A stretch of 25,490 bases of DNA from Syntrophomonadaceae bacterium (GCA_007126465.1 SLBE01000046.1:1-25490), one strand, 5' to 3'. Positions 2,244-24,180 are shown, counted from the first letter of the stretch. Numbers and translations: made by a program. The notes: generated by a model from the sequence alone, not told the origin.

Positions 2244-2777
2244 GTGAATAGATCTGGAGACAATCTAAATCCTGCAATTTTAGCCAGGAGAGCACTTGAA
2301 TTTTACCTGAAGGAAGGTTCCCTGCCGGAAATACCCGGCAGCCTTCCGGCTGAGTACTACAGCAGGGCAGGAGTATTTGTTTCTTTAAAGAAAGATGACC
2401 AATTGCGCGGCTGTATCGGAACGGTAGAGCCGGTCCGTGACAACCTTGCCGAAGAAATTGCGTTCAACGCTGTTAGCGCTGCAGTGCGGGATCCGCGCTT
2501 TACTCCGGTAGATATAGAAGAGCTTCCTTCACTTTCTGTGACTGTGGATGTTTTAGGCCCGATGGAGCGAATCAGCAGCGAAGATGAGCTTGATCCTCAA
2601 CAGTATGGAGTGCTGGTGCGCAGTGGTTCGCGCAGCGGGTTGCTGCTGCCGAATCTTGAAGGTGTTAATACAGTAAAAGAACAGCTTGATATCGCCCGAC
2701 GTAAAGCTGGTATTATGCCCGGTCAAAAGGCGAATTTATACCGTTTTAAAGTCACCCGCTACGGGGAAGGCGATTAA
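2244..2777 (+). CDS. amrA: AmmeMemoRadiSam system protein A (AMMECR1 domain)
   Basis: GVFVSLKK..LRGCIGT, DPRF, GLLLPNL motifs of AMMECR1. ORF opens at 2235; GTG 2244 follows a GAGGTG RBS. Confidence 0.92.
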   Translation: MNRSGDNLNPAILARRALEFYLKEGSLPEIPGSLPAEYYSRAGVFVSLKKDDQLRGCIGTVEPVRDNLAEEIAFNAVSAAVRDPRFTPVDIEELPSLSVTVDVLGPMERISSEDELDPQQYGVLVRSGSRSGLLLPNLEGVNTVKEQLDIARRKAGIMPGQKANLYRFKVTRYGEGD

Positions 2778-2805
2778 GTTTAAAGATAAATAGGAGCTGG
2801 TTTAA

Positions 2806-8875: not shown

Positions 8876-8901
8876 GTCATATATAGTATTTATATTAGAG
8901 C

Positions 8902-8940
8902 ATACGGTATGTTTGTAACAATCAGACATGCCGTATTTGT
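8902..8940 (+). terminator. Likely intrinsic terminator after glmS
   Basis: 14-bp stem ATACGGTATGTTTG / CAGACATGCCGTAT (two G-U pairs), 7-nt loop, followed by a T-rich tract. Confidence 0.65.
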
Positions 8941-8979
8941 ATATGTATGCCATAAATAGTTAATTATACAAGTAAAAAC

Positions 8980-9008
8980 TTTACTTTAAGAAGGAAAGCA
9001 AGTATGAT
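8980..9008 (+). promoter_or_regulatory. Putative sigmaA promoter for Zn-ribbon hypothetical gene
   Basis: TTTACT (8980-8985), N17, TATGAT (9003-9008). Confidence 0.55.
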
Positions 9009-9081
9009 AATATAAAATTAAGTGCATTAGGTGTACATATGTGCAGGTAAAGGTAGTCATTACCAGGTGGCGGGTGATTAT

Positions 9082-9741
9082 ATGCATACCCATAAAGTTG
9101 ATACAGAGTTAGTTTGTTTCGTTTGTAATAAACTTACAATACACAATATTGAGTATGCTGATAATCGCATGAATAATATTACCTGCAGCACCTGTGGTGT
9201 AAAATATGAACTGGTTATCGAAGTTAGCATTTCTTATCATACTGAAAATATACTGAAACGCATTCTGACTAAACCTCACCGAATTTTAGATGAAACTCAC
9301 ACTGATTTAATTGAATTTATTTATTCTTTGCCACTAAGGGTAGTATCGAAGCCATATAGGCTGGTAAATGAAATTATTGTAGAACCAGGTCAATCTACTG
9401 ATGAATCTAAGAAAAATGAAACAGATATTTTTTGCAGCTACTGTTCAGAGCCCACCTCGCATAGTATTTATTATTTTGACAATAGAATGCAATATTCGGT
9501 TTGCTCTCAATGTGGCTTGAAAATAGAGTTTCTTTGTCTGGTAGTTAAGTACAAGAACTATCCTGAAGAATTAATGCACCGAATTGTAACTAAACCTGAA
9601 CGGATTTTGAAAGAGTTACACAGCCAGCGTTCCAGCTTGTTATACTCCATTCCGATAAGGGTTGTTACTAAGCCTTATCGCCTCCTCAGGGAATTTGTTG
9701 CCAGGATGAAAAATACAACCTCAAACAAAAGCAATTTCTAA
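9082..9741 (+). CDS. Hypothetical protein with two tandem CxxC...CxxC Zn-ribbon + helical repeats
   Basis: Two internal repeats, each CxxC-N19-CxxC followed by RI.TKP.RI and Y-S-[LI]-P-[LI]-R-V-V-[ST]-K-P-Y-R-L. ORF opens at GTG 9031; ATG 9082 is the more likely start. Confidence 0.75.
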   Translation: MHTHKVDTELVCFVCNKLTIHNIEYADNRMNNITCSTCGVKYELVIEVSISYHTENILKRILTKPHRILDETHTDLIEFIYSLPLRVVSKPYRLVNEIIVEPGQSTDESKKNETDIFCSYCSEPTSHSIYYFDNRMQYSVCSQCGLKIEFLCLVVKYKNYPEELMHRIVTKPERILKELHSQRSSLLYSIPIRVVTKPYRLLREFVARMKNTTSNKSNF

Positions 9742-9879
9742 TTAAGCTAACACAAACTTTTCCCCTATTTTCTAATAAGGTAACTAAAACAGGGATCTGT
9801 AAAGCATGATCGCTGCTTTAGAATGTGCAGAAAATGGGGCAATTGGATAATTGAGACATTAAAAGACAGTTTTTTTGTA

Positions 9880-9908
9880 TTGACAAAACAGGCAAGAGTA
9901 ATTATACT
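9880..9908 (+). promoter_or_regulatory. Near-consensus sigmaA promoter of the PTS/corrinoid/dehydrogenase operon
   Basis: TTGACA (9880-9885), N17, TATACT (9903-9908). Confidence 0.8.
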
Positions 9909-9932
9909 GAAAATGAACTAATGATTGACATG

Positions 9933-9946
9933 TGAACAGATGTGCA
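9933..9946 (+). promoter_or_regulatory. Candidate SorC/DeoR-family operator
   Basis: Imperfect palindrome TGAACA-GA-TGTGCA just downstream of the promoter. A SorC-family regulator is encoded in the operon. Confidence 0.55.
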
Positions 9947-10062
9947 ATATCAGATTATTTAGGTTTCTTCCATTCGTTGAACTTTAATAGTGTCATAACA
10001 GCTTAGCATGTGAGGGTTAAGATAAAGCTTTTAACTTTAACAAATTGAGGTGACTTCTTGTT

Positions 10063-10737
10063 ATGATGTTAGCTGATTTGAGGCAGGCAGTAATAGAAAC
10101 TGCCCGTAAGATGAAAGAATACGGGTTAGTTGAGCTGGCTGGGGGAACTGTTTGTGCTGTTGATAAAGAAACCTCACTGGTTGCAATTACTCCAAGTGGA
10201 TTGGAGTATGACAATATGCAGCCGGAAGATGTTTGTCTGGTAGATTATGATTTAAGGTTAGTGGATGGCAGGCTAAAGCCTTCAATTGCTTCAGATATGT
10301 TTACAGAAATAATTAAAGCCCGCCCTGATGTCGGCGCAGTAATACATACTCACTCAAGTTATGCAACTGCATTCGCCTCGTTAAATCGAGAAATCCCTGT
10401 TATTACCACTACGCAAGCTAACCTGGTTGGAGGAACAGTACCTGTAGTAAGGCCGCTCCACCCAGGACCACATACAAAAGAATACTTAGCGAATATTGTA
10501 AAAACTCTCGGAAACGGTAAAGCTGTTAATCTAATGTGTCATGGCCCTATAGTCGTAGGTGATGATCTGGATGACTGTTTAGCTGTTGCTGTAACCATAG
10601 AAAGCACAGCAGCGATAGCAATTAGGGCTGCAGCTCTTGGCAATCCAGTCTGTTTGAACCAGGATGATACAAAGCTTGCCTATGACTATTGCCGTAGAGC
10701 TGTAGGGCAAAAAAAACATAATGAAAGGGGGGAATAA
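10063..10737 (+). CDS. Class II aldolase/adducin-family protein (FucA/AraD-like), atypical active site
   Basis: AITPSG, KPS, RPDVGAVIHTHS (metal HxH) and xHG third His. PSIA in place of PSSE/PSSD. Confidence 0.88.
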   Translation: MMLADLRQAVIETARKMKEYGLVELAGGTVCAVDKETSLVAITPSGLEYDNMQPEDVCLVDYDLRLVDGRLKPSIASDMFTEIIKARPDVGAVIHTHSSYATAFASLNREIPVITTTQANLVGGTVPVVRPLHPGPHTKEYLANIVKTLGNGKAVNLMCHGPIVVGDDLDDCLAVAVTIESTAAIAIRAAALGNPVCLNQDDTKLAYDYCRRAVGQKKHNERGE

Positions 10738-10738
10738 T

Positions 10739-11047
10739 GTGGACCAAAAGTTAATTCTTGTTGTTTGCGGGGCAGGTATTAATACCTCCACTATGGCAGG
10801 GGAATTCATATCGGACGAAATCAGTAAGCGCAAACTTAAAAACGTTAAGGTAAAAACTGTACTTGTTAATGATTTGCCTCGCTATAAAGGTCAAAAGGAT
10901 ATGGCAATTGTTTATATGACTAAGGTTGACACTGATATGGGTGTTCCATCTTTCCAGGGTATGAACTTTCTGATTGGCACGCGTGATACAAAGCTTGAGC
11001 TGTTCGATAAAATCCTTGAATCTTTGGATGTTGAGCAGCAGGGTTAA
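10739..11047 (+). CDS. PTS galactitol-family EIIB component
   Basis: ILVVCGAGINTSTM with phosphorylatable Cys and GatB-like C-terminal F..G. GTG 10739 follows a G-rich RBS (ORF opens at 10721). Confidence 0.85.
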   Translation: MDQKLILVVCGAGINTSTMAGEFISDEISKRKLKNVKVKTVLVNDLPRYKGQKDMAIVYMTKVDTDMGVPSFQGMNFLIGTRDTKLELFDKILESLDVEQQG

Positions 11048-11086
11048 AAAAGAAGCAGTTAAAAAAATGTTTAGGAGGTTTTATCG

Positions 11087-12364
11087 ATGAGTGGAATTTA
11101 TTCTACAATTGTTGCTGGAGTTGATTGGTTTGTAGCCCTTGGTCCTTCCGTAATGATTGCAATTGTTCTCACAGTTCTTGGTACTGCTTTTGGGGCAGGT
11201 TTTTCAAAAAGCCTTCGTGGTGGGATTATTACCGGAGTTGGGTTAGCCGGTCTATTCCTGGTGGTTGACTTAATTGTTGCTGCCCTCTTACCAGCTATTA
11301 ACGCGATGGCTGAAAACTTTAACCTGCAGTTAAGGCTGGTTGATGTGGGCTGGGCTGATGCAGGGATTGCCTGGGGGTGGCCCGGGGTCGCCGGTGTTAT
11401 GCTGGGCATCATTGCTGTAAATATCATAATGGTCCTACTTAAATTAACAAAAACACTGTGGACAGATGTTTGGAGTTACTGGCATGGCCAGGTTTGCGGG
11501 GCATTTGTTTGGGTTGTAACCGGAAGCGTTACACTTGGCATTATCGCTGCAATAATTTACCTGGTTATCGGTAGCCTGTTTTCAGATATTACAGCAAAGC
11601 GCTACCAGGAGTATAATGATATGCCAGGGATTGGAGTGCCCTGCGGCCCTACTGTGCTGGCCAGTGTTTTTGCCATCCCGGTTAGCGCAGCCCTCAATAA
11701 AATTCCTGGAATTAACAAGTTAAACGCTTCACCTGAATCAATCAAGGAAAGGTTCGGGGTTTTCGGGGAAGTATCAGTTATGGGTGCAATAATTGGCCTT
11801 ATTATTGGATTACTTGCAGGCTATGGTGTCGCCGGTGCTTTGGTCCTGTCTATGCAGGTTGCTGCTATCATGCTTATTTTGCCCCGGATGGTCTCAATTA
11901 TTGCGGAAGGTTTAATACCGATCACTATGAAAGTTGCCGAATTCGTGCGTGAACGTTTTAAAGATCGCGAACTGCATGTTGGGGTTGACTGTGCTGTGTT
12001 GTTGGGGCATTCTTCGGTGATGGCTTCAGCTTTAATTCTTTTCCCCCTATCTATTCTGCTGGCTGCAGCACTACCCGGTAATGGAATGCTGCCCATAGCA
12101 AGTCTTGCGCTTATTCCATTTCTGGCTGGAGCGGTTGTACCTTTTACCAGGGGAAATGTTATTCACACCGTGATTATTGTCCTGCTGCTTCTTATTCCTT
12201 ACCTGTATGCAGCTACTAACATGTCTCCTGTTCACACTGAAACCTATGCTCAACTTGGAATGTTTACTGAGGAAATTGAAGGTGGAGCGAGGTTTGCCAG
12301 CTGGGACATGGGTGGAGATCCAATTAGCTGGATAATTAACCAGATCTTCAGGCTTTTTAGCTAA
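11087..12364 (+). CDS. PTS galactitol-family EIIC permease (GatC-like)
   Basis: 425 aa polytopic protein with LGPSVM, DVGW..AGIAWG, TKTLWTDVWSYWH, MLILPRMVSIIAEGLIP and LHVGVDCAVLLGH motifs similar to GatC. Confidence 0.9.
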   Translation: MSGIYSTIVAGVDWFVALGPSVMIAIVLTVLGTAFGAGFSKSLRGGIITGVGLAGLFLVVDLIVAALLPAINAMAENFNLQLRLVDVGWADAGIAWGWPGVAGVMLGIIAVNIIMVLLKLTKTLWTDVWSYWHGQVCGAFVWVVTGSVTLGIIAAIIYLVIGSLFSDITAKRYQEYNDMPGIGVPCGPTVLASVFAIPVSAALNKIPGINKLNASPESIKERFGVFGEVSVMGAIIGLIIGLLAGYGVAGALVLSMQVAAIMLILPRMVSIIAEGLIPITMKVAEFVRERFKDRELHVGVDCAVLLGHSSVMASALILFPLSILLAAALPGNGMLPIASLALIPFLAGAVVPFTRGNVIHTVIIVLLLLIPYLYAATNMSPVHTETYAQLGMFTEEIEGGARFASWDMGGDPISWIINQIFRLFS

Positions 12365-12428
12365 AAGGTAATGTAATATGAGTGTATTCTTCCAGGGTTC
12401 AACCTGGAAGAATACACCTTGAATAAGG

Positions 12429-12902
12429 TTGGTGAAGGATAAGGTGAAATATTTTAACGAAGACTTAATTATGACAGGCCTTCCAGCTGAAAGCAGTGAT
12501 GAAGTGATCAACAGCTTAGTAGGCAAAATGGCAGACAAAGGGTATGTTACCCCTGATTATGCTTTGGAAGTAACCGAAAGGGAAAAAAAACACCCAACCG
12601 GCCTTCCAACCCAGGAGGTTAAAGTAGCAATTCCACATGCCGGTGCAGATAACGTTATAAAGCCTGGTGTTGCTTTAGCCGTCCTAAAAAAACCGGTAGT
12701 ATTTTGCAACATGGAAAACCCTGACCAGGATTTGGATGTCAGTATTGTATTTTTACTGGCCAATAAAGATAGCGGGGATCAATTGAAAGATTTGCAGTCG
12801 CTGACAGGTCTTTTTGCTGATCCATCAATTCTTCAGCGTGTTGTTAAATCCGGCAGTGCAAAAGAAATTGCCGAATTACTTAACCAAAGATTATCTAACT
12901 AG
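12429..12902 (+). CDS. PTS EIIA component (mannitol/fructose-type EIIA_2 fold, GatA-like)
   Basis: REKKHPTGLP..VAIPH (phospho-His), F.NMENP, VFLLA. Exact start uncertain. Confidence 0.9.
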   Translation: MVKDKVKYFNEDLIMTGLPAESSDEVINSLVGKMADKGYVTPDYALEVTEREKKHPTGLPTQEVKVAIPHAGADNVIKPGVALAVLKKPVVFCNMENPDQDLDVSIVFLLANKDSGDQLKDLQSLTGLFADPSILQRVVKSGSAKEIAELLNQRLSN

Positions 12903-12919
12903 GTAAAGGATGTGGAGAA

Positions 12920-14059
12920 GTGTTAACCCCAAGAGAAAGAGTTTTAACAGCTCTTAAACACGAGGAACCTGATCGGGTTCCACTCGGGCTAGGGGCAAGT
13001 GGAGCCAGTGTTACAGATGATGTATACTTTAAATTGAAAGATTACTTTGGTATCGAGGGCGATGTTGAACCATTTCGTTCCGGCCATGGAGATAACATAT
13101 ATGACCCAAGGGTTTTTGATTGTTTAGGGGTGGACTTCAGGCATGTTTTTTTAAGATCTTCTTTAGACTTTAAGCCTCCTGTAAACGAGGATGGAAGCCT
13201 TGTTAATGAATGGGGCGTTGCTGTAAAAAAATATGGCCGTTTCTATGAGTGGGTTAGTCACCCTCTAGCAGAAGCAGATTTATCTGATCTTGATAATTAC
13301 AAGTGGCCTAAGCCATATACGGGGCAACGTCAACGTGGCTTGCAGGATACTGTTCAGGAATACTATCAAAAGAGCGATTTTGCTATAGCTTCTAGGTCAC
13401 CATCTCGAGGTTTTTTTGACCTGGGTATCCAGTTAAGGGGATTTGAGCGCTTTATGACCGATATGGTTCTTGACAAAAAATTCACTCATAAATTTATGGG
13501 TAAATTACTGGAAACTATTATCGGGTTTTATGATGTGCTCTTAGAACAAGCCGGCCCATATATACATATTGTTGAAACCCAGGATGATTACGGGCATCAA
13601 AACTCGCTGTTTTTCTCGCCGGCATTATTCCGTGAAATGATTAAGCCATACCGGGCAGAACTAAATGCTTTTATAAAGAAAAAAGCACCGCAAGCTTCAA
13701 TTTTTATTCACACATGTGGCGCTGTTAGTGAGCTAATCGAGGATTTAATTGATTGTGGTGTTGATGTTGTTAATCCTGTGCAGCCATTGGCTAAAGGTAT
13801 GGAAACGAAAAAACTAAAAGAAAGATTTGGCGGAAAAATTGTGTTTCATGGTGGGATTGATTTACAGAAAGCCCTGGCCGGATCAAAAGAAGATGTTGAG
13901 ATAGAAGTTAAAACCAGGCTTCGAGACCTGGCACCCGGCGGAGGTTATATTCTTTCCCCTGCCAATGTTGTTCAAGATGACGTGCCAGTTGAGAATATAG
14001 TCCTGTTGTTTGACCTGGCCAGGAAGTATGGTCAATACCCTATAGATATACCTGAATAA
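12920..14059 (+). CDS. Uroporphyrinogen-decarboxylase-fold protein, probable corrinoid-dependent methyltransferase (MtaA/CmuA-like)
   Basis: TPRERVLTAL.HEEPDRVP, DDYG.Q..LFFSP..FREMIKPY, HTCG (HxC), GGIDLQ, GGGYILSPAN. Lacks the HemE RQAGRY motif. A corrinoid protein gene is nearby. Confidence 0.8.
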   Translation: MLTPRERVLTALKHEEPDRVPLGLGASGASVTDDVYFKLKDYFGIEGDVEPFRSGHGDNIYDPRVFDCLGVDFRHVFLRSSLDFKPPVNEDGSLVNEWGVAVKKYGRFYEWVSHPLAEADLSDLDNYKWPKPYTGQRQRGLQDTVQEYYQKSDFAIASRSPSRGFFDLGIQLRGFERFMTDMVLDKKFTHKFMGKLLETIIGFYDVLLEQAGPYIHIVETQDDYGHQNSLFFSPALFREMIKPYRAELNAFIKKKAPQASIFIHTCGAVSELIEDLIDCGVDVVNPVQPLAKGMETKKLKERFGGKIVFHGGIDLQKALAGSKEDVEIEVKTRLRDLAPGGGYILSPANVVQDDVPVENIVLLFDLARKYGQYPIDIPE

Positions 14060-14356
14060 GGGGTGTAATTATGAAAAGGGTAACTGTGGCCGGAGGTTCA
14101 TGCGGCTGCTCCAGCCTGCGGCGTGCATCAGAAAAAATTGATCAATATTGTCGGTATAAAGGTATTGAAGTCAAAGTTTCTGTGCATAACTTATGGCAGT
14201 CTGTACACTTAGATCCCAGGGCGGACCTGGTCATACAAATGGTTCCGTTCTTTGAAGGGTTAAGTTGCCCTGTCTTAGATGGCCGTCCCTTTATTAAAGG
14301 CGACGGCGAAGACAACCTGTTACATGAGGTTGCTAAGTTGCTGGCATGAAATACCT
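13981..14356 (+). repeat. Tandem duplication, copy 1 (3' end of URO-D-fold gene + EIIB-like gene)
   Basis: Sequence from cgtgccagttgagaatatag... recurs 403 nt downstream. Confidence 0.95.
14071..14349 (+). CDS. GatB-like PTS EIIB paralog 1 with displaced Cys
   Basis: MKRVTVAGGSCGCSS...CPVLDGRPFIKGDGE aligns to the GatB fold (MKRKIIVACGG...PLVHGMPFISGIG), but has Gly at the catalytic Cys position. Confidence 0.7.
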   Translation: MKRVTVAGGSCGCSSLRRASEKIDQYCRYKGIEVKVSVHNLWQSVHLDPRADLVIQMVPFFEGLSCPVLDGRPFIKGDGEDNLLHEVAKLLA

Positions 14357-14383
14357 TGCAAGTTTAAATTAGTAACCGAACTG

Positions 14384-14756
14384 CGTGCCAGTTGAGAATA
14401 TAGTCCTGTTGTTTGATTTGGCCAGGAAGTATGGTCAATACCCTATAGATATACCTGAATAAGGGGTGTAATTATGAAAAGGGTAATTGTAGCCGGAGGT
14501 TCATGCGGTTCCAGCATGCAGCGTGCATCAGAAAGAATTGATCAATATTGTCAATATAAAGGTATTGAAGTCAAAGTTTCTGTGCATAACTTATGGCATT
14601 CTGTGCACTTAGATTCCAGGGCGGATCTGGTCATACAAATGTTTCCGTTCTTTGAAGAGTTAAACTGCCCCGTTTTAGATGGTCGCCCCTTTATTAAAGG
14701 CGACGGCGAAGAAGATCTGTTGCATGAAGTTGCTGAATTGCTGGCATAAAGTACCT
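14384..14756 (+). repeat. Tandem duplication, copy 2
   Basis: Hand alignment gives about 90% nt identity to 13981-14356, with one 3-nt deletion. Includes the last 25 codons plus stop of the URO-D-fold gene. Confidence 0.95.
14474..14749 (+). CDS. GatB-like PTS EIIB paralog 2 with displaced Cys
   Basis: Paralog of 14071-14349 (13 substitutions + 1 indel by hand count). N-terminus MKRVIVAGGSCGSS. Confidence 0.7.
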   Translation: MKRVIVAGGSCGSSMQRASERIDQYCQYKGIEVKVSVHNLWHSVHLDSRADLVIQMFPFFEELNCPVLDGRPFIKGDGEEDLLHEVAELLA

Positions 14757-14803
14757 ATGATTTGCTTTAACAAACGATGTAATTATATGTGAGGTGTTTA
14801 GAA

Positions 14804-15439
14804 ATGAAACTACTGTCTGAAATTGGCGATAAAATGATAGAAGGTAATGTTGAAGAGCTGATAGACCTGATTAATAAAGCAGAAGCTGAAGGAATTGATC
14901 AAAAGACGATTATTAATGATGGTTTAATTGCTGCCATGCTAAGCCTTGGTGAAAAATTCAAACTCAATGAAGTGTTTATACCTGATGTACTGGTTGCAGC
15001 GGCAGCAATGAAAGAAGCGATTAATCATTTAGGTTTCGATAATATTTCTGATACAGGTTCACCAAAAGGAGTAATTGTAATTGGAACGGTTCGGCATGAC
15101 ATGCATGATATTGGGAAAAACCTGGTTGCTTTACTTATGAACAGCAATGGTTTTCATGTTCATGATCTCGGTGTAGACGTGTCACCGGACAAATTCGTGG
15201 AAGCGGTAAAAGATTACAGTCCTGATATCCTGGCCCTCTCTGCTCTTTTAACAACAACACTGCCTGAAATGAGTGAGGTAATAAAAGCTTTGGGTAATGC
15301 AGGAGTTAGAAAATCTACACGGGTTTTGGTTGGCGGTGCGCCGGTAACTGAAGAATATGCCGATTCGATCGGTGCAGATGGTTATGCGCCTGATGCAACC
15401 TCTGCAGTAACTAAATCTTTAGAGATGATTGATAGCTAA
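14804..15439 (+). CDS. Corrinoid (cobalamin-binding) methyltransferase protein, MtaC/MttC-like
   Basis: N-terminal cap domain (GLIAAM..LGEKF...EVFIPDVL), DxHxxG motif DMHDIGKNLV, SALLTTT, GGAP, IGADGYAPDA. ATG 14804 follows GAGGTG. Confidence 0.93.
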   Translation: MKLLSEIGDKMIEGNVEELIDLINKAEAEGIDQKTIINDGLIAAMLSLGEKFKLNEVFIPDVLVAAAAMKEAINHLGFDNISDTGSPKGVIVIGTVRHDMHDIGKNLVALLMNSNGFHVHDLGVDVSPDKFVEAVKDYSPDILALSALLTTTLPEMSEVIKALGNAGVRKSTRVLVGGAPVTEEYADSIGADGYAPDATSAVTKSLEMIDS

Positions 15440-15498
15440 TACTGCTGCAATGAAGTGTTATCTCAATGGTTGCTGGTCAGAAAGGATTGTGAACAAAC

Positions 15499-16464
15499 AT
15501 GGTTACAAGAAAGCATAACCAGAGATTGTTATCGAAAATTGCTCACATGTATTATGAGCAAGGCTTAAGCCAGCAAATGATTGCAGAAAAATTGAGGACA
15601 TCAAGGCCAACTATAAGCAGAATGCTAGATCAAGCTCGTAAAATGGGCATAGTTAAAATATCTATCCAATCATTTAATGATCGAATAGCTAGTCTTGAAA
15701 GTGAATTAGAAAGCAAATTTTCTCTTAACGAAGTAGCTGTTATTGCAAATGATTCTATGAATAAAGCAGATCAGAAAAAGGCGCTTGGGGCAGTTGCTGC
15801 AGATATATTACAGCGAATTGTTAAAGGATCTGATGTTGTTGGGATTTCATGGGGAACAAGTTTGCGAGAAGTTATTAACGGACTTAAGCCAACACATATT
15901 CCCGGGTTAATAGCAGTTCCACTGGTTGGTGGAATGGGTCAGGATATACGCTATGAGATTCATTCAAACAGCCTTGTAGTAGATTTTTCCAGAAAACTTG
16001 GTTGTCACAGCTGGGTTTTACATGCACCGGCTATTGTTGAGAGAGAAAATTTGAAAGATGCCATCCTGGGCGAGTCTGAAAGTGGAGAAATTATGGAGCA
16101 GGCAAAAAAGGCTAATATTGGCATGGTGGGATTAGGAGCACTTAATGAATCCTCAACTATGATTCAAACCGGGTTCTTCTCTATCGATGATTTTAAAGAA
16201 ATCAGGGAAAAAGGCGCAATCGGCGAAGTCTGCTCATTTTTCTTTGATCGTAATGGTCAAGCTTGTGATATTGATATCAATAAGAGGGTTATCGGGGTAG
16301 GCCCTTATGATTTGAAAAATATTGAAACAGTCATTGCAGTTGTAGCCGGTGACAAAAAGGAAGAGGCTCTTCATGCGGCTCTAAGAGGCCAGTTTATAAA
16401 TATTTTGATTACAGATGAATTGACAGCTGAAAAGGTGCTTTTAATTGAAAGTGCTACCAGGTAG
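15499..16464 (+). CDS. SorC/DeoR-family sugar-phosphate-binding transcriptional regulator
   Basis: N-terminal HTH (IAHMYYEQGLSQQMIAEKLRTSRPTISRML..AR..GIVKI), GISWGTSL, VPLVGG, IGMVGLG and LITDE motifs. Confidence 0.93.
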   Translation: MVTRKHNQRLLSKIAHMYYEQGLSQQMIAEKLRTSRPTISRMLDQARKMGIVKISIQSFNDRIASLESELESKFSLNEVAVIANDSMNKADQKKALGAVAADILQRIVKGSDVVGISWGTSLREVINGLKPTHIPGLIAVPLVGGMGQDIRYEIHSNSLVVDFSRKLGCHSWVLHAPAIVERENLKDAILGESESGEIMEQAKKANIGMVGLGALNESSTMIQTGFFSIDDFKEIREKGAIGEVCSFFFDRNGQACDIDINKRVIGVGPYDLKNIETVIAVVAGDKKEEALHAALRGQFINILITDELTAEKVLLIESATR

Positions 16465-16520
16465 TTGGTTAACCTAAACCTTAATAATGCAAACTATCTT
16501 TATTATATGGGGGGCGTGAA

Positions 16521-17483
16521 ATGAAGCTATCGAAAAAATTAAAGCTAAGAATGTTAGAGCAAATGCTGCTAACTCGCTATTTTGAAGAAAAAGTTGATGA
16601 GCTTTTTGCCAAGGGATTGATCCATGGAACCACTCATCTTTCAATCGGAGAAGAAGCGATGGCGGCAGGACCGGTAAACGCCTTAAAAGCAGATGACTTT
16701 ATGGCCATTACTCACCGTGGGCACGGTTCCTGTATAGCTAAGGGTGCTGATATTAATATCATGATGGCTGAGTTAATGGGCAAAGAAACAGGTTATTGTA
16801 AAGGTAAAGGCGGTTCCATTCATGTTGCTAACCTGGAAGAAGGTAATCTTGGGGCAAACGGTATAGTGGGTGGTGGAATCCCTATTGCTACTGGAGCCGC
16901 ACTTGCACAGAAAATGCAAAACACCGGTAAAATTGTCCTTTGCTTTTTTGGTGATGGTGCATCTAATGAAGGAACATTTCATGAATCACTAAATATGGCC
17001 TCTATCTGGCAGTTGCCTATTGTTTACGTTTGCGTTAATAACATGTATGGGATGTCTACGTGCATTGACGATGTTTGCCCTACAAATAACATTTCTGATC
17101 GTGCATCTGCTTACCAGATGGAAGGTATTACAATCGATGGTAACGATGTTCTTGAGATGTTTGAGGTTACGAATAATGCTGTTATAAAAGCACGTAAGGG
17201 TCAGGGGCCTACGTTGATTGAAGGCTTAACTTACAGGTGGAAAGGTCATTCGAAAAGTGATGCTAACTTGTATCGGACCAGGGAAGAGATAGAAGAGTGG
17301 AAAAAGAAATGCCCAATCAAGCGCTTCCAGACCTATTTAATCGAACAAAAAATCATGTCTGAGGAAGAGATTAAAAAAATGGAAGAATCATCCCTTGAAA
17401 CAATTGAGAGGGCTGTGGAGTTTGCTGAGCAAAGTCCTTATCCCAGCTTAGATGCACTGGAAGAAGACCTCTATGCTTATTAA
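16521..17483 (+). CDS. TPP-dependent 2-oxoacid/acetoin dehydrogenase-like E1 alpha subunit
   Basis: THRGHG, GKGGSIH, TPP-binding GDGASNEG...NN, YRWKGHSKSD. Substrate not determinable from sequence. Confidence 0.92.
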   Translation: MKLSKKLKLRMLEQMLLTRYFEEKVDELFAKGLIHGTTHLSIGEEAMAAGPVNALKADDFMAITHRGHGSCIAKGADINIMMAELMGKETGYCKGKGGSIHVANLEEGNLGANGIVGGGIPIATGAALAQKMQNTGKIVLCFFGDGASNEGTFHESLNMASIWQLPIVYVCVNNMYGMSTCIDDVCPTNNISDRASAYQMEGITIDGNDVLEMFEVTNNAVIKARKGQGPTLIEGLTYRWKGHSKSDANLYRTREEIEEWKKKCPIKRFQTYLIEQKIMSEEEIKKMEESSLETIERAVEFAEQSPYPSLDALEEDLYAY

Positions 17484-17525
17484 TTGGAGTATTTAATATC
17501 TACCATAGACGGAGAGTGATGTTAC

Positions 17526-18506
17526 ATGGAAGAGATAACCTATGGCCAGGCGGTTCGTGATGCTATGAGGGAAGAACTGCAGCGTGATGAAAATGTTTTT
17601 TTGATGGGTGAAGATATAGGGGTCTACGGAGGAGCTTTCGGCATTACCTTTGGTATGATTGATGAGTTTGGACCTGACCGTGTTAGAGATACACCTATAT
17701 CCGAGGCAGCTATAGTAGGAGCTGGTGTCGGGGCAGCGATGGTTGGTATGCGCCCTATCGTTGAGATTATGTTTAGCGACTTCCTTACCCTGGCCAGTGA
17801 TCAAATTATGAATCAAGCTGCAAAAATCCATTATATGCTTGGTGGCAAAGCTAAGGTGCCCCTGGTTGTAAGAACACCAGGTGGTTCCGGAACAGGTGCA
17901 GCTGCTCAGCATTCTCAAAGCCTTGAAGCACTATTTGCCCATATACCGGGCCTTAAAGTAGTTATGCCATCTAGCCCATATGATGTTAAAGGTCTTTTGA
18001 AGACAGCAATTCGTGACGACAACCCTGTTGTTTTTTTTGAACACAAACTATTGTATTCAAAAAAAGGAGAGGTTCCGGATACAGACTATACTGTTCCCTT
18101 CGGCGAAGCAGAGATAAAACGGTCTGGATCAGATATCACAGTTTTTGCAACATCAATCATGGTACACAGGGCTCTCGAAGCAGCGGAGCAGCTGGCAAAT
18201 GAAAATATTAGTGTCGAAGTAATAGATCCAAAAACACTTGTGCCACTGGATACTGAAACCATTGTTAAATCGGTTATAAAGACCGGCCGCCTGATGATTG
18301 TTCAGGAAGCCTGTAAAAGAGGCGGATTTGCCTCTGAAGTTGTAGCAGAGGTTGTTGAAAGTGAAGCTTTTGGTTATTTAGATGCACCGATTACAAGGGT
18401 CGCCGGTAAAAATATTCCCATACCATATTCAAAAAAACTAGAAGCGGCAGCTGTTCCACAGGTAGAAGATATAGTTAAAGCAGTAAAAGAAGAGCTCTTA
18501 CAGTAG
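17526..18506 (+). CDS. TPP-dependent dehydrogenase E1 beta subunit
   Basis: [50 protein letters not shown]. Confidence 0.93.
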
Positions 18507-18518
18507 GGAGGCAGTTTG

Positions 18519-19817
18519 ATGGCAGTTGAAATACTGATGCCCAAGATGGGCATGACAATGGAAGAAGGAACAATTCTTAAGTGGGTTAAACAAATTGGCG
18601 ATGAAATTGTCAAAGGGGAAGTTGTCCTCGAGATTCAGACTGATAAGGTAAAAATGGATGTAGAGGCACCAGCTGATGGAGTGTTATTAAAAATTGTCGC
18701 AGCTGAAGGTTCCGTGGTACCGGTTAATACCCCTATTGCATATATAGGAGAAGCAGGAGAAACTGTAGCTGAAGAAGAGCAACCTGCCAGTGTAGCTGAT
18801 AGCTCATCAGCAGAAACTGCAGAAGAAGTAAAAACTCATGGCCCTGTTAAAGCAACTTCCAGCGTTGATAGTGAAAAATGTAAAGCAACGCCTGCAGCAA
18901 AAAGGATGGCTGCAGAAAAAGGAATTGATTTGCAAAATATAACTCCTGGATCGACTGATGGAATGATTAGGGTAAAAGATCTGGACGCGGTTAAAGCCAC
19001 CCCACTGGCCCAGAAGATTGCTCATGATCAGGGTATAGATCTCAGTGCTGTTAAAGGTAGTGGTGTTCATGGAAAAATCACCAAAGAAGATCTTCTTTCA
19101 GATTCTGCCATAAGAAGTAGTGATGATGAACAAAGCAGTGTAACGCCGCTGGCTGGTTTACGCAAAGTAATTGCTGAACGAATGAGTCTTTCATGGCATG
19201 AAGCTCCTCATGCATTTATCAGCCTTGAGGTGGATATGACTGCAATGGCAAATCTAAGGTCAGAAATACTAAAAGATCTGGAGGAAAAGACCGGGAACAA
19301 AGTTTCATATAACCACCTGTTAATCAAGGTAGTCGCTCGAGCATTAAGAGATAACCCGGCAGTGAATGCCAGGTTCATTGATAATGGAATAGATTTTTCT
19401 GAAGATGTAAATATTGGTGTTGCTGTTGCTGCAGAGGAAGGCTTAATTGTGCCTGTACTGCATAAAGCGGACAAATTAAACATAGAAGAGGTTGTTCTTA
19501 ATACTAATGAACTAATTGAGAAGGCTCGCAATGGTGAACTTGTATTAAAAGAGTTGGAAGGCGGGACTTTTACAATCAGTAATCTTGGTATGTTCGGTAT
19601 TACCATGTTTGGACCGATTTTGAATCCCCCGGAAGTGGGGATCCTCGGTGCAGGGAAAATAATTGACAGTCCGGTAGTGGAAAATGGAAATGTCGTGGTT
19701 AAGCCGATAATGACTTTGTCTTTATCATTTGATCACCGGGCCCTGGATGGAGCACAGGCGTCCCTCTTTTTATCGCGTGTCAGGGATTTAATGGAATCAC
19801 CGGCGAAGTTACTATAA
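18519..19817 (+). CDS. Dihydrolipoamide acyltransferase E2 (one lipoyl domain, two peripheral-subunit-binding domains)
   Basis: Lipoyl motif EIQTDKV, two ATP.A.+.A...GIDL repeats, GGTFTISNLG, catalytic DHRALDG. Confidence 0.93.
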   Translation: MAVEILMPKMGMTMEEGTILKWVKQIGDEIVKGEVVLEIQTDKVKMDVEAPADGVLLKIVAAEGSVVPVNTPIAYIGEAGETVAEEEQPASVADSSSAETAEEVKTHGPVKATSSVDSEKCKATPAAKRMAAEKGIDLQNITPGSTDGMIRVKDLDAVKATPLAQKIAHDQGIDLSAVKGSGVHGKITKEDLLSDSAIRSSDDEQSSVTPLAGLRKVIAERMSLSWHEAPHAFISLEVDMTAMANLRSEILKDLEEKTGNKVSYNHLLIKVVARALRDNPAVNARFIDNGIDFSEDVNIGVAVAAEEGLIVPVLHKADKLNIEEVVLNTNELIEKARNGELVLKELEGGTFTISNLGMFGITMFGPILNPPEVGILGAGKIIDSPVVENGNVVVKPIMTLSLSFDHRALDGAQASLFLSRVRDLMESPAKLL

Positions 19818-19860
19818 AAGAGTAATGGAAATACACAGAGCAATGGAGGACACAGATCAG

Positions 19861-21246
19861 ATGGATTATGATATTTTGGTACTGGGCGGCGGAATAGGTG
19901 GCTATGTTGCTGCAATCAGGGCTGCGAAAGGTGGGGCGAAAGTTGCCCTGGTAGAAAAAAACCATATTGGTGGAACCTGTCTTAATTATGGCTGCATTCC
20001 AACCAAGTCCCTGATACGCAGTGCAGAAGTACTAGATACAGTAAAAAATGCAAGTGATTTTGGTGTAAAAGCTACCGGGGCAGAGCTAGACCTGGAATCG
20101 GTAATTAAACGTAAAGACAATATTGTAAAAATGTTGACTGAAGGTGTTGAAGGCCTGTTAAATGCCAACCAGATTACCATTTATAACAGCATGGGTAATG
20201 TTAAGGATGCCAGGACAGTTGAAGTAAAAGATAGCAGCGGAAAGAGCTTAGACCTTACTACTAATAAATTAATTATTGCAACAGGTTCAGTAACAACAAT
20301 TCCGAATATTCCTGGCGTGGATTTGCCAGGTGTTATAACCAGCAAGGAAGTGTTGAATATAACAGATCTGCCTGAAGAGGTTTGTATCGTTGGCGGAGGA
20401 GTAATAGGATTAGAGTTTGCTTACATACTAAATGCTTTCGGGGCAAAGGTTACCGTTTTGGAATTATTGCCCGAAATATTACCTAAAGCTGAACGTGAGC
20501 TGGTCAATTATTTGCTGGATTCTTTTCGGGAAAAAGGCATTAGCATTCTTACCAAGGCCCAGGTTAATGCTATTGAAGAGAGTGAACCCGGTATGAATGT
20601 TATGTTTTACCACAACGATGAAGAAAAAACGCTTCAGTCCGGTTTAGTTTTAATGGCGGTGGGCCGTGAACCCAACCTTGCAGGTCTGGATGCTCTTAAT
20701 TTAAAAAGAAATTCAAGTAAGGGGATAATCGTAAATAGCTCCATGGAAACTTCCTTGCCTGGAGTTTATGCTATCGGAGATGTAACAGGTGGTGTCCAAC
20801 TGGCACATGTTGCAACTGCTCAGGGTATAGTAGCTGCAGAAAATGCTCTTGGTGAAGAAGCGAAATTTAATAGCAACAGCATCCCTTATTGCATTTATAG
20901 CAAACCTGAAATGGCCTGGGTAGGCTTAACGGAAGAAGAAGCAAAAGAAAAGTATGGCCGGATAAAAGTAGGCCGGTTTCCTTTTACCGGTAGTGGTAAG
21001 GCCATGGTTTATGGTGATACCTCCGGCCTGGTTAAGATGATTATAGATGAGAAATATGGTGAAATTGTCGGTCTACATCTAATTGGGCCCGAAGCGACCA
21101 ATATGATTGCCGAAGGTGTTTTGGCCAGAATGTTGGAAGCAACAGTGATTGAGCTGGCAGCTACGATTCATCCCCATCCAACGTTGTCTGAAGTTTTAAT
21201 GGAAGCTGCTCATATGACGCTTGACCAGGGCATTCATTATATTTAG
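19861..21246 (+). CDS. lpdA: Dihydrolipoyl dehydrogenase E3
   Basis: GGGIGG FAD site, redox disulfide GGTCLNYGCIPTK, GGGVIG NAD site, HPHPTLSE. ATG 19861 follows GGAGG (ORF opens at 19825). Confidence 0.95.
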   Translation: MDYDILVLGGGIGGYVAAIRAAKGGAKVALVEKNHIGGTCLNYGCIPTKSLIRSAEVLDTVKNASDFGVKATGAELDLESVIKRKDNIVKMLTEGVEGLLNANQITIYNSMGNVKDARTVEVKDSSGKSLDLTTNKLIIATGSVTTIPNIPGVDLPGVITSKEVLNITDLPEEVCIVGGGVIGLEFAYILNAFGAKVTVLELLPEILPKAERELVNYLLDSFREKGISILTKAQVNAIEESEPGMNVMFYHNDEEKTLQSGLVLMAVGREPNLAGLDALNLKRNSSKGIIVNSSMETSLPGVYAIGDVTGGVQLAHVATAQGIVAAENALGEEAKFNSNSIPYCIYSKPEMAWVGLTEEEAKEKYGRIKVGRFPFTGSGKAMVYGDTSGLVKMIIDEKYGEIVGLHLIGPEATNMIAEGVLARMLEATVIELAATIHPHPTLSEVLMEAAHMTLDQGIHYI

Positions 21247-21289
21247 CAGTTGAAACAAATATTATTGACCCTTGAAAGGATGACAGAAA

Positions 21290-21574
21290 ATGCAACAAAA
21301 TTCTGTAGAAGTACTTATTACGAATAAATCTGGGCTTCACGCAAGGCCCGCATCTCTTTTTGTACAGGAAGCAAATAAGTATAAATCCGAAATTGAGATA
21401 AATTGCAAAGACAAAACAGTTAATGCAAAAAGTATACTTAGTATACTTGGCTTGGGTGCCAATAAAGGAAGCACAATCGTTATTAGTGCTGAAGGTGAAG
21501 ATGCAGGAGTTGCTTTAAGTGGCCTAAAAGAATTTTTGGAAAAAGAATTACCCAGGGTGGATGGTGCGGAATGA
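21290..21574 (+). CDS. ptsH: Phosphocarrier protein HPr
   Basis: GLHARPA (His15) and NAKSILSIL (Ser46) motifs. Confidence 0.93.
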   Translation: MQQNSVEVLITNKSGLHARPASLFVQEANKYKSEIEINCKDKTVNAKSILSILGLGANKGSTIVISAEGEDAGVALSGLKEFLEKELPRVDGAE

Positions 21575-23301
21575 TTACTCTTAATGGAATTGGTGCATCG
21601 CCGGGGATAGTTGTTGGCAAAGCAGCTTTGATCAGGGATAGGGAAATCGAGCTGACACATGAGAAAATTATGCCAGAGGAGACAGCTCAGGAAATTGAGC
21701 GCTTCGATGCTGCCATTACAAAAGCTAAAGAGGAGATAAAGGTAATTAGGGATCAAGCTGAGCAGAATATTGGCAGTGAAGAAGCAGCTGTCTTTACTGC
21801 ACACTTGATGATATTAGATGATCCTGAATTGGTGCAGGGTGTTGTATCAAAAATCAAGAATGAGCTGATCAGTGCGGAAAATGCTGTTAATGAGGTTGTT
21901 AAAAATTATATAGAAATGCTGTCAGCTTTAGATGATGAATATATAAAAGCCAGGGTTGCCGACATCGAAGATATCGGTCAGCGTTTGCTATTGTTGCTTA
22001 CTGGTACCGAGAAAACTAACGTTGAATTAGACAAAGAAACAATCTTAATAGCGAAAGATCTGAGTCCATCAGACACTGCACAATTAAACGCTGATTTAAT
22101 CCTTGCTTTTGCAACGCAGTCCGGTTCACGTTCTTCCCATACAGCTATTCTTGCCCGATGCCTTGGAATTCCTGCCGCGGTAGGTCTTGGAGAAAAGCTA
22201 TTGGAGGTAGTGACTGAGGGTGACATAATTATTGTTGATGGCAATGATGGAGTTGTCATAGTAGATCCTGACCAAACGGTGCTTAAAGATTACCAAAGAA
22301 AAATTGAGATGGAAGAAAAAGAAAAGTTGCGTCTTACGGAATATAAGCATAAGTCAGCGACTACTGCAGATGGGCTGAGAATAAAAATAATGGGAAATAT
22401 TGGTGCAGTTAATGAAGCAGATGCTGTTTTGAAAAATGGAGGAGAAGGTTCAGGGCTATTTCGGACAGAGTTTCTTTACATGGAAAATGAAGAATCTCTA
22501 CCTTCGGAAGAACAACAGTACCTGTCATATAAAGCGGTGGCTGAGAAGATGAATGGTAAAGAAGTGGTAATTCGCACACTTGATATTGGTGGTGATAAAG
22601 AGCTTGCATCACTCAATCTGGCATGTGAAGAAAACCCTTTTCTTGGTTACAGAGCTATAAGAATATGTTTAGACCGGGAAGATATTTTTAAGCCTCAACT
22701 TAGGGCTATTTTAAGAGCGAGTGTTTTTGGTGATTTAAAAGTAATGTTTCCTATGATCGCAGGCCTTGAGGAATTAAGAAAGGCCCTGTATTTCTTGAAT
22801 GAAGCCAAGCAAGAATTGAAAAATGAAGAAATTCCATTCAAACATGATATTGAAGTTGGGATTATGATCGAGGTGCCTTCTGCTGCTTTAATGGCAGACA
22901 CACTGGCTAAAGAGGTTGACTTTTTTAGTATTGGCACCAATGATCTCGTTCAGTATACACTGGCTGCAGATCGAAATAATGAGAAAGTGTCAGCAGCATA
23001 TAACCATTATCATCCCGCTGTTTTAAAGCTGATAAAAATTGTTGCAGATGCTGCTCATAATAATGGTATATGGGTGGGGATGTGCGGTGAAGCATCCGGA
23101 GATGAGCTTTTGCTGCCACTTTGGGTTAGCTTTCGTTTTGATGAATTGAGTATGAGTTCTGTTTCTATCCTTAAAGCAAAAGAAATTATTAGCTTATGGA
23201 GTGCTAAAGAAGCAGAACTGCTATCAGAAAAAGTATTAACTGCAGATACAGCTACCGAAGTTAAACAGCTTTTAGCATCAGCTTCAAAAGATAACTCATA
23301 A
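21571..23301 (+). CDS. ptsI: PTS Enzyme I (PEP-protein phosphotransferase)
   Basis: GIGASPG, SHTAILAR (phospho-His), GLFRTEFLY, RTLDIGGDK, ENPFLGYRAIR, FSIGTNDL, GMCGE. Confidence 0.96.
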   Translation: MITLNGIGASPGIVVGKAALIRDREIELTHEKIMPEETAQEIERFDAAITKAKEEIKVIRDQAEQNIGSEEAAVFTAHLMILDDPELVQGVVSKIKNELISAENAVNEVVKNYIEMLSALDDEYIKARVADIEDIGQRLLLLLTGTEKTNVELDKETILIAKDLSPSDTAQLNADLILAFATQSGSRSSHTAILARCLGIPAAVGLGEKLLEVVTEGDIIIVDGNDGVVIVDPDQTVLKDYQRKIEMEEKEKLRLTEYKHKSATTADGLRIKIMGNIGAVNEADAVLKNGGEGSGLFRTEFLYMENEESLPSEEQQYLSYKAVAEKMNGKEVVIRTLDIGGDKELASLNLACEENPFLGYRAIRICLDREDIFKPQLRAILRASVFGDLKVMFPMIAGLEELRKALYFLNEAKQELKNEEIPFKHDIEVGIMIEVPSAALMADTLAKEVDFFSIGTNDLVQYTLAADRNNEKVSAAYNHYHPAVLKLIKIVADAAHNNGIWVGMCGEASGDELLLPLWVSFRFDELSMSSVSILKAKEIISLWSAKEAELLSEKVLTADTATEVKQLLASASKDNS

Positions 23302-23421
23302 CCATCATTTTGTTACATATTATTGGTAGCCATCAAAGCTCAAGTTAGCTTCTATATTATTTGATTTTTAATCCCGTAGTAAAATAAGCACTTTTCAAAC
23401 TAGCAAATGGAGGCACAGTTA

Positions 23422-24102
23422 ATGCCAGAAAAGGTTGCATATGTTTTAGATTTTGATGGAACTATAACAACAAAGGATATTTCAAAAGAGCTGGCAATAC
23501 ATTATAATGAGGATCAGTTTTGGATAATTCACAATGCCTATAAAAAGGGTGAGCTAGGAATGCGTGACTGGTTAGAGCAGTCAGCAGCGTTACTGCCATC
23601 TAACTATGACCAGTTAATTACAACAGCTTTGAATTATGCTACTGTTAGACCCGGATTAACAGATTTTTTGGATTATGCTGCTTCTCAATCAAGGCCGGTG
23701 GTAATTGCCAGTGATGGATTTGGGTTTTATATTGAACCAATTTTAGAATCTGCTGGCATGTTAGATAAAATTACTGGAATCTATAGAAATGATCTTGCGT
23801 TAGATGATCATTGTCTGCCCTTCGTGCGATATCTACATGGTCACAATAATTGCAAGATATGCGGTAATTGTAAGGCTAACCATGTTAATGATTTCGTAAA
23901 TAGCGGATTCCAGGTTGTATTTGTTGGAGACGGGACTAATGATATATACGGTGCTTCAGTTGCGAATTATATCGCAGCCAGGGATCGCCTTGCAGATCTT
24001 TGCAGCATTAGAGAGTTGAATTATCATTCCTGGGAAGATTATTTCGATCTGATCAAGATTAGCAATCTATTATTTTCGCAGGGATTTCAAGGTGCAAGTT
24101 GA
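23422..24102 (+). CDS. HAD-superfamily phosphatase, MtnX-like
   Basis: DFDGTIT nucleophile motif, IASDG, C..CGNCK, VGDGTND. ATG 23422 follows GGAGG (ORF opens at 23407). Confidence 0.85.
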   Translation: MPEKVAYVLDFDGTITTKDISKELAIHYNEDQFWIIHNAYKKGELGMRDWLEQSAALLPSNYDQLITTALNYATVRPGLTDFLDYAASQSRPVVIASDGFGFYIEPILESAGMLDKITGIYRNDLALDDHCLPFVRYLHGHNNCKICGNCKANHVNDFVNSGFQVVFVGDGTNDIYGASVANYIAARDRLADLCSIRELNYHSWEDYFDLIKISNLLFSQGFQGAS

Positions 24103-24180
24103 ATATTTAATTATTAACAATTAAAAACCTTGTATTGCGAAACTCTTAAGCAGATATGCAAGAGATTAAAGGAGCTAATT

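Follow-up and report, generated by a model that had tools for sequence, protein, structure and literature searches.

What does a sugar phosphotransferase system (PTS) have to do with a cobalamin-binding methyl carrier? The question is raised by a stretch of 25,490 nt from a Syntrophomonadaceae bacterium (GCA_007126465.1, SLBE01000046.1:1-25490), below called the window, which is one entire 25.5-kb contig of a metagenome-assembled genome (MAG; 1.78 Mb, 79% complete). At 10063-23301 it holds a block of genes for PTS uptake, for a putative corrinoid methyltransferase with its carrier, and for a thiamine pyrophosphate (TPP)-dependent dehydrogenase complex. The reading that we prefer, and hold to be evenly balanced between right and wrong, is that the block would remove the methyl group from an O- or S-methylated carbohydrate (sugar, sugar acid or polyol) in a corrinoid-dependent process coupled to the PTS, and that this group would enter C1 metabolism. 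The cluster itself is real, conserved and mobile, and our verdict is that it is a new variant of the corrinoid methyltransferase systems, coupled to carbohydrate uptake.

A preliminary description of this DNA had reported 15 co-oriented genes behind one promoter. Open reading frame (ORF) calls and Pfam and NCBIfam searches agree with this: all genes are on the + strand, with intergenic gaps of -17 to 124 nt, a single sigma-70-like promoter precedes them, and no convincing + strand terminator was found inside the block. The features are as follows.

10063-10737, + strand: atypical class II aldolase/epimerase-family protein (Pfam Aldolase_II, 1.6e-42)
10721-11047, + strand: PTS EIIB, Gat-like (PTS_IIB; canonical phospho-Cys loop VCGAGINTS)
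11087-12364, + strand: PTS EIIC of the Gat/SgaT superfamily (EIIC-GAT; PF03611, 8.8e-67)
12429-12902, + strand: PTS EIIA, EIIA_2 type (Pfam and NCBIfam matches)
12920-14059, + strand: URO-D-fold protein, putative substrate:corrinoid methyltransferase (MT1; PF01208, weak MtaA/CmuA matches)
14071-14349, + strand: small EIIB-like protein, copy 1 (GatB fold, shifted Cys, GGxCG..R loop)
14352-14459, + strand: dead duplicate of the URO-D 3' end (75% amino acid identity to residues 344-379, two stops)
14474-14749, + strand: small EIIB-like protein, copy 2 (tandem duplicate)
14789-15439, + strand: putative corrinoid (cobalamin-binding) methyl-carrier protein (B12-binding_2 and B12-binding; DMHDIG, that is DxHxxG)
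15499-16464, + strand: SorC-family regulator of sugar-phosphate type (nearest Bacillus DeoR, next LsrR, both under cut-off)
16521-18506, + strand: E1 alpha and E1 beta of a TPP-dependent dehydrogenase complex (GDG..NN motif)
18516-19817, + strand: E2 acyltransferase (lipoyl domain, two E3-binding domains and catalytic domain; lipoyl-Lys in TDKV, DHRALDG)
19825-21246, + strand: E3 dihydrolipoyl dehydrogenase (TIGR01350, 537 bits, cut-off 409)
21290-23301, + strand: HPr and Enzyme I (EI), the general PTS proteins (Pfam and NCBIfam)

The functional motifs are intact in the corrinoid protein, E1 alpha, E2 and EIIB.

Recurrence of the gene set in other genomes

Ten distinct close loci, with URO-D proteins 58-70% identical to that of the window, were surveyed. 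Nine are of the PTS type and share a common core of the aldolase-like gene, EIIB, EIIC, EIIA, URO-D and the small EIIB-like gene. The carriers are Clostridium sediminicola and the metagenome contigs L001, L003, L089, L090, L125, L126, L127 and L131, and the aldolase-like gene was not seen in L127. The tenth locus, L091, is of an ABC-transporter type. The proposed pathway had been made to depend on its modules being found together elsewhere, and they do recur, both in the PTS-type loci and in L091. The corrinoid protein is present in 7 of the ten, HPr and/or EI in five and E1/E2 in four. The order in L126 is URO-D, NifS, E1a, E1b, E2, E3, HPr, EI, LplA, corrinoid protein and a second URO-D. In L091 the uptake genes are those of an Rbs-type ABC transporter, and after them come E1a, E1b, E2, URO-D, an FGGY kinase, an Rpe-like epimerase, a UlaD/HPS-like enzyme and the corrinoid protein, which implies that the association of URO-D, corrinoid protein and E1 survives a swap of the uptake system.

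The relatives also carry partners for methyl transfer. Directly 3' of the corrinoid gene in L125 lies a methyl-tetrahydrofolate (methyl-THF):corrinoid methyltransferase (MeTr; 322 bits, cut-off 259), and this cluster abuts the genes for carbon monoxide dehydrogenase/acetyl-CoA synthase (CODH/ACS). RACo activases flank the cluster in L003, L126 and L127, and L127 has an extra URO-D protein of the MtaA/CmuA type. The position of MeTr or RACo next to the corrinoid gene supports a real methyl transfer.

Most of the PTS-type loci are headed by a sigma-54 LevR-type activator. For the window sigma-54 control was rejected, since no -24/-12 motif was found upstream of the block and no LevR gene in the window, although the relatives do have LevR.

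One of the carriers, Clostridium sediminicola SH18-2, is listed as a strain and not as a MAG, and the hypothesis is directly testable in it if it is available in culture.

The putative methyl-transfer genes

The URO-D protein has more than 3300 homologues, and its nearest solved structure is MtaA (4ay7). The His-x-Cys of the MtaA zinc site is kept and invariant. Many of its Arg residues are invariant as well and would suit an anionic, that is phosphorylated, substrate. A structural neighbour cluster in the ESM Atlas consists of URO-D proteins fused to B12-binding domains. The corrinoid protein has the B12-binding_2 and B12-binding domains with DMHDIG at residue 104, and its top PDB match is the cobalamin-binding protein 1y80 (1.4e-54). 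The methyltransferase II (MT II; methyl-THF:corrinoid methyltransferase) and the activase are not in the window's gene set but elsewhere in the host genome, where MeTr is found on C173 (346 bits, cut-off 259) and RACo on C241, together with 11 B12-binding matches. Same-genus genomes encode acetyl-CoA synthase (ACS).

For the wider URO-D subfamily, 71 species-representative loci at 33-45% identity were compared. Most frequent among the neighbours on the same strand were URO-D paralogues (19 loci), ABC sugar permeases, FGGY kinases and fucose-isomerase-like proteins, followed by GH2 hydrolases, DeoR regulators and GFO/IDH/MocA oxidoreductases. A corrinoid protein was found within 10 kb in about 15 of the 71. 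Together with the B12-fusion cluster, these neighbours show that the wider subfamily is carbohydrate-linked and at least partly corrinoid-linked.

Other forms of the URO-D protein were observed along the way. A longer form of 450-455 residues lies near CobW and RACo or a corrinoid gene in L003 (1-4018) and L126 (20761-21032), in L003 with a weak thioredoxin-like match, and is possibly a second methyltransferase of the system. In L128 and L092, homologues with 52% identity form tandem pairs near PfkB, DeoC/DUF2090-type, Zn-dependent alcohol dehydrogenase, FGGY kinase and substrate-binding-protein transporter genes; this may be a catabolic set of the inositol or deoxy-sugar type and may hint at methyl-cyclitol substrates. 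The relatives G002, G009, G012, G015 and others have several URO-D paralogues of 420-437 residues with 34-38% identity. Their match to the URO-D protein of the window is split, with residues 2-46 separate and often one in-frame stop (TAA, TAG or TGA), which could reflect an insertion, two ORFs or recoding. An independent PTS link in the Chloroflexia locus L021 was rejected, as the tblastn matches to EIIC and EIIA there are not adjacent genes; the neighbouring genes encode signalling proteins and an ABC transporter.

The PTS and the small EIIB-like proteins

The PTS is complete, with EI (674 bits, cut-off 342), HPr (96 bits, cut-off 48), EIIA, EIIB and EIIC, and the phosphorylation motifs of HPr (GLHARPA), EIIA (IPHAG) and EIIB (VCGAGINTS) are present. 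EIIC, the sole EIIC-GAT match in the host genome, scores 371 bits on TIGR00827, under the cut-off of 542. The canonical gat catabolic genes had been described as missing, and the Pfam and NCBIfam searches confirm that the island described below has no such dehydrogenase or tagatose-bisphosphate aldolase (GatD, GatYZ). A plain galactitol or ascorbate operon was rejected because GatD/GatYZ and UlaDEG are lacking and the scores are under threshold.

Two small proteins of about 91 residues follow the URO-D gene. They have no Pfam match and a weak match to GatB, and the earlier assignment as EIIB-like is upheld by structure as far as the fold goes: the AlphaFold2 model (pLDDT 92.5) has Staphylococcus aureus GatB (5gqs) as its top Foldseek match, with a TM-score of 0.74. 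Their Cys is displaced by three residues from the place of the GatB phospho-Cys, which closes strand 1, into a GGxCG..R loop that is invariant in 13 homologues, and two further Cys are nearly invariant in the same set. The second copy stems from a 403-bp tandem duplication, in which 13981-14383 is repeated at 14384-14786 with 89-92% identity. The repeat spans the 3' end of URO-D and the small EIIB-like gene and leaves a dead copy of the URO-D 3' end; a variant from a microbialite metagenome has a single copy of the small gene. It was also observed that the contig of G002 ends exactly at the 13981-14786 duplication, and that source-metagenome contigs break there too.

An arsenosugar or selenosugar as substrate was considered from the CX5R-like small protein with its three Cys and from the soda-lake origin, but this is pure speculation.

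An accessory island

The genes at 10063-23301 were confirmed as described earlier; the true unit is wider. It extends over 8872-24167 and adds an ORF at its left end and a phosphatase gene at its right end.

8872-24167: accessory island of 15,296 bp between glmS and glnS, absent in the relative G001 and in community contigs
9031-9741, + strand: AT-rich ORF of 236 residues at the left end, with two internal zinc-ribbon-like repeats
9880-9908, + strand: sigma-70-like promoter TTGACA-17-TATACT, predicted from its consensus match only (11 of 12 positions)
23407-24102, + strand: MtnX-like HAD-IB phosphatase, the final gene, none seen in other clusters

In the comparison with relatives, glmS and glnS are separated by about 30 bp in G001, of the same genus, and by 1.4 kb in G017, of the same family. 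Contigs from four public metagenome runs were also compared to the window. In one of them, which stems from the same soda-lake community, 8871 and 24168 are separated by 33 nt of filler in place of the 15,296 bp, and both junctions of the island are spanned by independent contigs from soda-lake, salt-lake and microbialite metagenomes. The contig depth is about 6-14 in the island as compared to up to about 150 in the flanks, and the GC content is 0.40-0.43 as compared to 0.46-0.48 upstream. The spacing, the junction contigs, the depth and the GC content together define the unit. An assembly chimera was rejected because independent contigs of three other metagenomes span both junctions.

EI was found in only 2 of the 31 genomes of the order, this one (G000) and G002, which bears the same island; the island therefore supplies its own PTS. 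An E1-beta orthologue is found in 4 of 30 relatives, and the complex is therefore not housekeeping. Thus, both a full PTS and a dehydrogenase complex come with the island into a clade in which they are otherwise mostly absent. These counts, and the absence of the block at this site in G001, also led us to reject a housekeeping pyruvate dehydrogenase (PDH) and ptsHI that happen to adjoin an unrelated sugar operon. The observations support the block as a single transferable unit, and the best explanation is that the island was acquired horizontally and is self-contained.

The island-free allele coexists in the same soda-lake community, where by depth the island is in roughly a tenth of the related population. 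In the ORF at 9031-9741 each repeat consists of CxxC...CxxC and then a conserved 'TKP.RIL' stretch; the ORF matches no family of Pfam or NCBIfam, and it was not seen in the other clusters. The predicted promoter sits 155 nt 5' of the first block gene at 10063, and the terminator of glmS is at 8902-8936.

The aldolase-like protein and the E1-E3 complex

The aldolase-like protein is under every NCBIfam cut-off, the best score being 150 bits as compared to 251, and its three metal-binding His are kept. Its best solved match, 6btd, is deposited as a fuculose phosphate aldolase; we take it to be the aldolase that acts on 5-deoxyribulose-1-P in the 5-deoxyribose shunt.

The two E1 subunits belong to the PDH/Aco alpha-beta type. 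E1 beta scores 420 bits against a PDH subfamily cut-off of 321, and E1 alpha 380 against 394. The TPP motif of E1, the lipoyl-Lys and DHRALDG of E2, and E3 are all present. The architectures of E2 and E3 vary between clusters; in the relatives E3 carries a lipoyl domain and lipoate-protein ligases are nearby, which is the Aco arrangement of Clostridium magnum. L127 has a DeoC aldolase and GAPDH at the place of E1-E3, so that both variants could yield a C2 unit and a triose phosphate. The SorC gene is directly 5' of E1 in the window and in C. sediminicola, a position that hints at a sugar-phosphate inducer.

Proposed mechanism and alternative explanations

From these genes a pathway can be sketched. 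The EI and HPr of the island would drive the Gat-family EIIA, EIIB and EIIC, so that the substrate is imported and phosphorylated. The URO-D-fold enzyme would then act as methyltransferase I on the phospho-sugar and pass the methyl group to the Co(I) of the dedicated corrinoid protein, which the methyl-THF:corrinoid methyltransferase and RACo of the host would unload and re-activate, sending the methyl group into C1 and acetogenic metabolism. The atypical class II aldolase-family enzyme might process the demethylated skeleton. Most speculatively, the SorC-controlled E1-E3 complex might turn this skeleton into acyl-CoA and a triose-level product. We infer the direction of methyl flow, the phospho-sugar as the substrate of the URO-D protein, and every step on the carbon skeleton. 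It is conceivable, as a tentative and somewhat doubtful joint claim, that this is a new anaerobic route for methylated carbohydrates, in which a PTS, or an ABC transporter and a kinase, would feed a new URO-D methyltransferase that passes methyl groups to cobalamin, and E1-E3 would oxidatively cleave a ketol phosphate to acyl-CoA and triose phosphate; in a sulfur version of it, the EIIB-fold protein would be a thiol or persulfide carrier working with NifS.

Several observations weigh against a corrinoid-dependent demethylation of this kind. The NCBIfam methyltransferase scores of the URO-D protein are 20-56 bits, far under the cut-offs of 235-600, and the third zinc Cys of MtaA is replaced by an invariant Asn. 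No corrinoid gene was found in C. sediminicola within the 20.7 kb covered. A NifS/IscS-type cysteine desulfurase, for which plain O-demethylation offers no explanation, occurs in 7 of the ten close loci and is missing in the window; it adjoins the small EIIB-like gene and has an intact pyridoxal-phosphate Lys and Cys loop. The island was almost silent, with near-zero coverage, in the one available metatranscriptome. G002 has the part from the corrinoid gene to the HAD phosphatase, and EIIC and URO-D were not found in it, probably due to assembly or binning loss at the repeat. The aldolase-like protein has Ala at the position of AraD Asp76/FucA Glu73 and Asn at that of AraD Asp120, both conserved in 5 orthologues, and so departs from the canonical form of epimerase and aldolase alike. 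Finally, G001 and G019 have 60-62% identical E1-beta proteins and no close URO-D, and a tree of eight E1-beta sequences from cluster-linked and unlinked genomes is an unresolved star; it shows no cluster-specific E1 clade and is uninformative, also as to pyruvate or acetoin as the substrate. In the preliminary description the backbone was to be rearranged by the aldolase-like enzyme and split by E1-E3. Both roles are conjectural: the aldolase-like enzyme is without the catalytic acids of AraD and FucA, and for E1-E3 there are the two relatives and the unresolved tree. What stands of the pathway is the co-occurrence of its modules, their arrangement as one unit, the lack of gat genes and the methyl-transfer partners in the relatives.

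The desulfurase raises the possibility of a different substrate, a methylthio-sugar, for instance a 5-methylthioribose-type by-product of S-adenosylmethionine (SAM). The URO-D protein would then treat a thioether or thiol as MtsA/MtpA do, a persulfide or thiol would be handled by NifS together with the small EIIB-like protein, and E1-E3 would split a deoxy- or ketol phosphate to acetyl-CoA and triose phosphate. This would give a meaning to the thiol-type His-x-Cys kept in the URO-D protein, to a desulfurase that is catalytically intact, as judged by its motifs, next to the Cys-rich small protein, and to the invariant loop and three conserved Cys of the latter; the match to 6btd, the MtnX-like phosphatase at the end of the island and the DeoC and GAPDH genes of L127 also fit. 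For related mlp clusters with URO-D and corrinoid proteins, the proposed substrates are compounds of methyl-sulfur or methyl-selenium (PMC10418091). Yet the window itself is without NifS, and L091 has URO-D, the corrinoid protein and E1/E2 but neither NifS nor the small protein. MtnK, MtnA and RLP-type genes are lacking, the MtnB score of the aldolase-like protein is poor, and the GH2 and inositol-type neighbours in the wider family fit O-methyl sugars better. Moreover, we know of no precedent for a PTS that phosphorylates a methylthio-pentose, and on balance we consider such a substrate unlikely. The island could also be a mosaic, in which a sugar PTS, a URO-D/corrinoid pair, an ordinary acetoin or pyruvate dehydrogenase with its SorC regulator, and ptsHI are separate modules that travel together. 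The SorC-E1-E3 genes do form a sub-block with its own regulator in the window and in C. sediminicola, E1 beta exceeds the PDH cut-off, 5 of the ten close loci are without E1 in the DNA covered, and the E1-beta relatives, the star-like tree and the variable E2 and E3 point the same way. But E1/E2 are embedded in the operon in two other gene orders (L126 and L091), in L091 even with another type of transporter, PTS parts lie on both sides of E1-E3 in the window, the block as a whole is either there or missing, and corrinoid, MeTr and RACo genes lie inside PTS operons in several lineages. A chance assembly of modules therefore appears improbable to us.

The methyl group could also run the other way, or not be involved at all: the URO-D protein may S-methylate a thiol from methyl-corrinoid, for detoxification or biosynthesis, or be a cofactor-independent decarboxylase or isomerase of a sugar phosphate next to which the corrinoid protein is incidental. 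Its nearest characterised relatives, MtaA and MtbA, do methylate thiols from methyl-corrinoid, and the founder of the URO-D family, HemE, is a decarboxylase. The corrinoid gene missing near the URO-D gene of C. sediminicola, and the share of only about a fifth of the wider subfamily with such a gene within 10 kb, agree with this. We regard it as very unlikely, since the corrinoid gene is present in most of the close loci, four of which have MeTr or RACo next to it, the URO-D/B12-domain fusions are close structural neighbours, and the setting is catabolic, with a PTS, LevR or SorC control, kinases and transporters. The demethylation of a PTS-imported carbohydrate remains the reading that we prefer.

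Comparison with known systems

Methyl groups bound to sugars as ethers or thioethers are found in polysaccharides of algae and plants, in lipopolysaccharides and cyclitols, and among the by-products of SAM; they stand in the way of ordinary sugar catabolism. The claim that no system joining a PTS to a corrinoid methyltransferase had been described was examined in full-text literature searches, which found none, nor any description of an anaerobic removal of methyl groups from sugars. The sole route for carbohydrate demethylation that was found is the P450 of aerobic marine bacteria that demethylates 6-O-methyl-D-galactose, an oxygen-dependent reaction that releases formaldehyde (PMC6292453). 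It addresses the same problem, a methyl ether that blocks the catabolism of the sugar; here the methyl group would be transferred anoxically to cobalamin and conserved.

The other nearest description is that of the type 1 mlp clusters (Kountz and Balskus, PMC10418091), with widespread URO-D homologues, a corrinoid protein and Ram/RACE and without a THF methyltransferase, and with a proposed role in methyl-sulfur or methyl-selenium metabolism. They contain Mlp paralogues, two or three of them, but lack a PTS, sugar kinase, aldolase and E1-E3, whereas the island has a single URO-D gene and lacks RACE; the paper mentions neither sugars nor a phosphotransferase. The likeness to the corrinoid O-demethylase and methylotrophy systems, and to MtaA, MtbA and MtsA of methanogens with MtaC and MtbC, is that a URO-D-fold methyltransferase adjoins a DxHxxG corrinoid protein. 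Relatives of the island add the pterin-binding methyl-THF methyltransferase or RACo, and the host genus has Wood-Ljungdahl genes. In contrast to those systems, the substrate here appears to be a PTS-imported or kinase-phosphorylated carbohydrate and not an aryl methyl ether, methanol, methylamine or methylthiol, the third zinc ligand differs, MT II and the activase are outside the island, and the genes are linked to an aldolase-family enzyme, an EIIB-like protein, E1-E3 and, in the relatives, NifS.

The gat and ula systems of Escherichia coli share with the island the separate EIIA, EIIB and EIIC of the Gat/SgaT superfamily and a class II aldolase/epimerase-family enzyme like UlaF, and in relatives of the island the likeness extends to a metallo-beta-lactamase fold protein, a decarboxylase like UlaD and an epimerase like Rpe. 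The island differs from both in having no GatD, GatY/Z, UlaD, UlaE or UlaG, an EIIC under the GatC cut-off, and an aldolase-family protein without the acid/base residues of the epimerase. Likewise, the dehydrogenase complex resembles AcoABCL and PDH of Bacillota in its heterotetramer-type E1 alpha/beta, lipoylated E2 and E3, but it stands under a SorC regulator of sugar-phosphate type within PTS/corrinoid operons and is not housekeeping in this clade.

If the preferred reading is true, it would extend the corrinoid methyltransferases to a new class of substrates, connect, in sediments and guts, the fermentation of carbohydrates with methylotrophic acetogenesis, and be, as far as the literature searches show, the first link between a PTS and B12 chemistry. 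If instead the sulfur version holds, a PTS fold would have gained a new function as a thiol or persulfide carrier. Members of the URO-D subfamily number in the thousands and lie near sugar genes in Chloroflexota, Bathyarchaeia, Thorarchaeota, Spirochaetes and Clostridia, and an assigned function would annotate many genomes.

Flanking genes

The initial 8.9 kb of the window contains a Bacillota operon, cdaA-cdaR-glmM-glmS. At the other side, the right boundary of the island lies just 5' of the ribosome-binding site of glnS, which probably starts at the ATG at 24181 and not at the listed TTG at 24130. A trio of LigB-family, AMMECR1 and radical-SAM genes at 1345-3822, 5' of cdaA, is a conserved triad and unrelated to the block.

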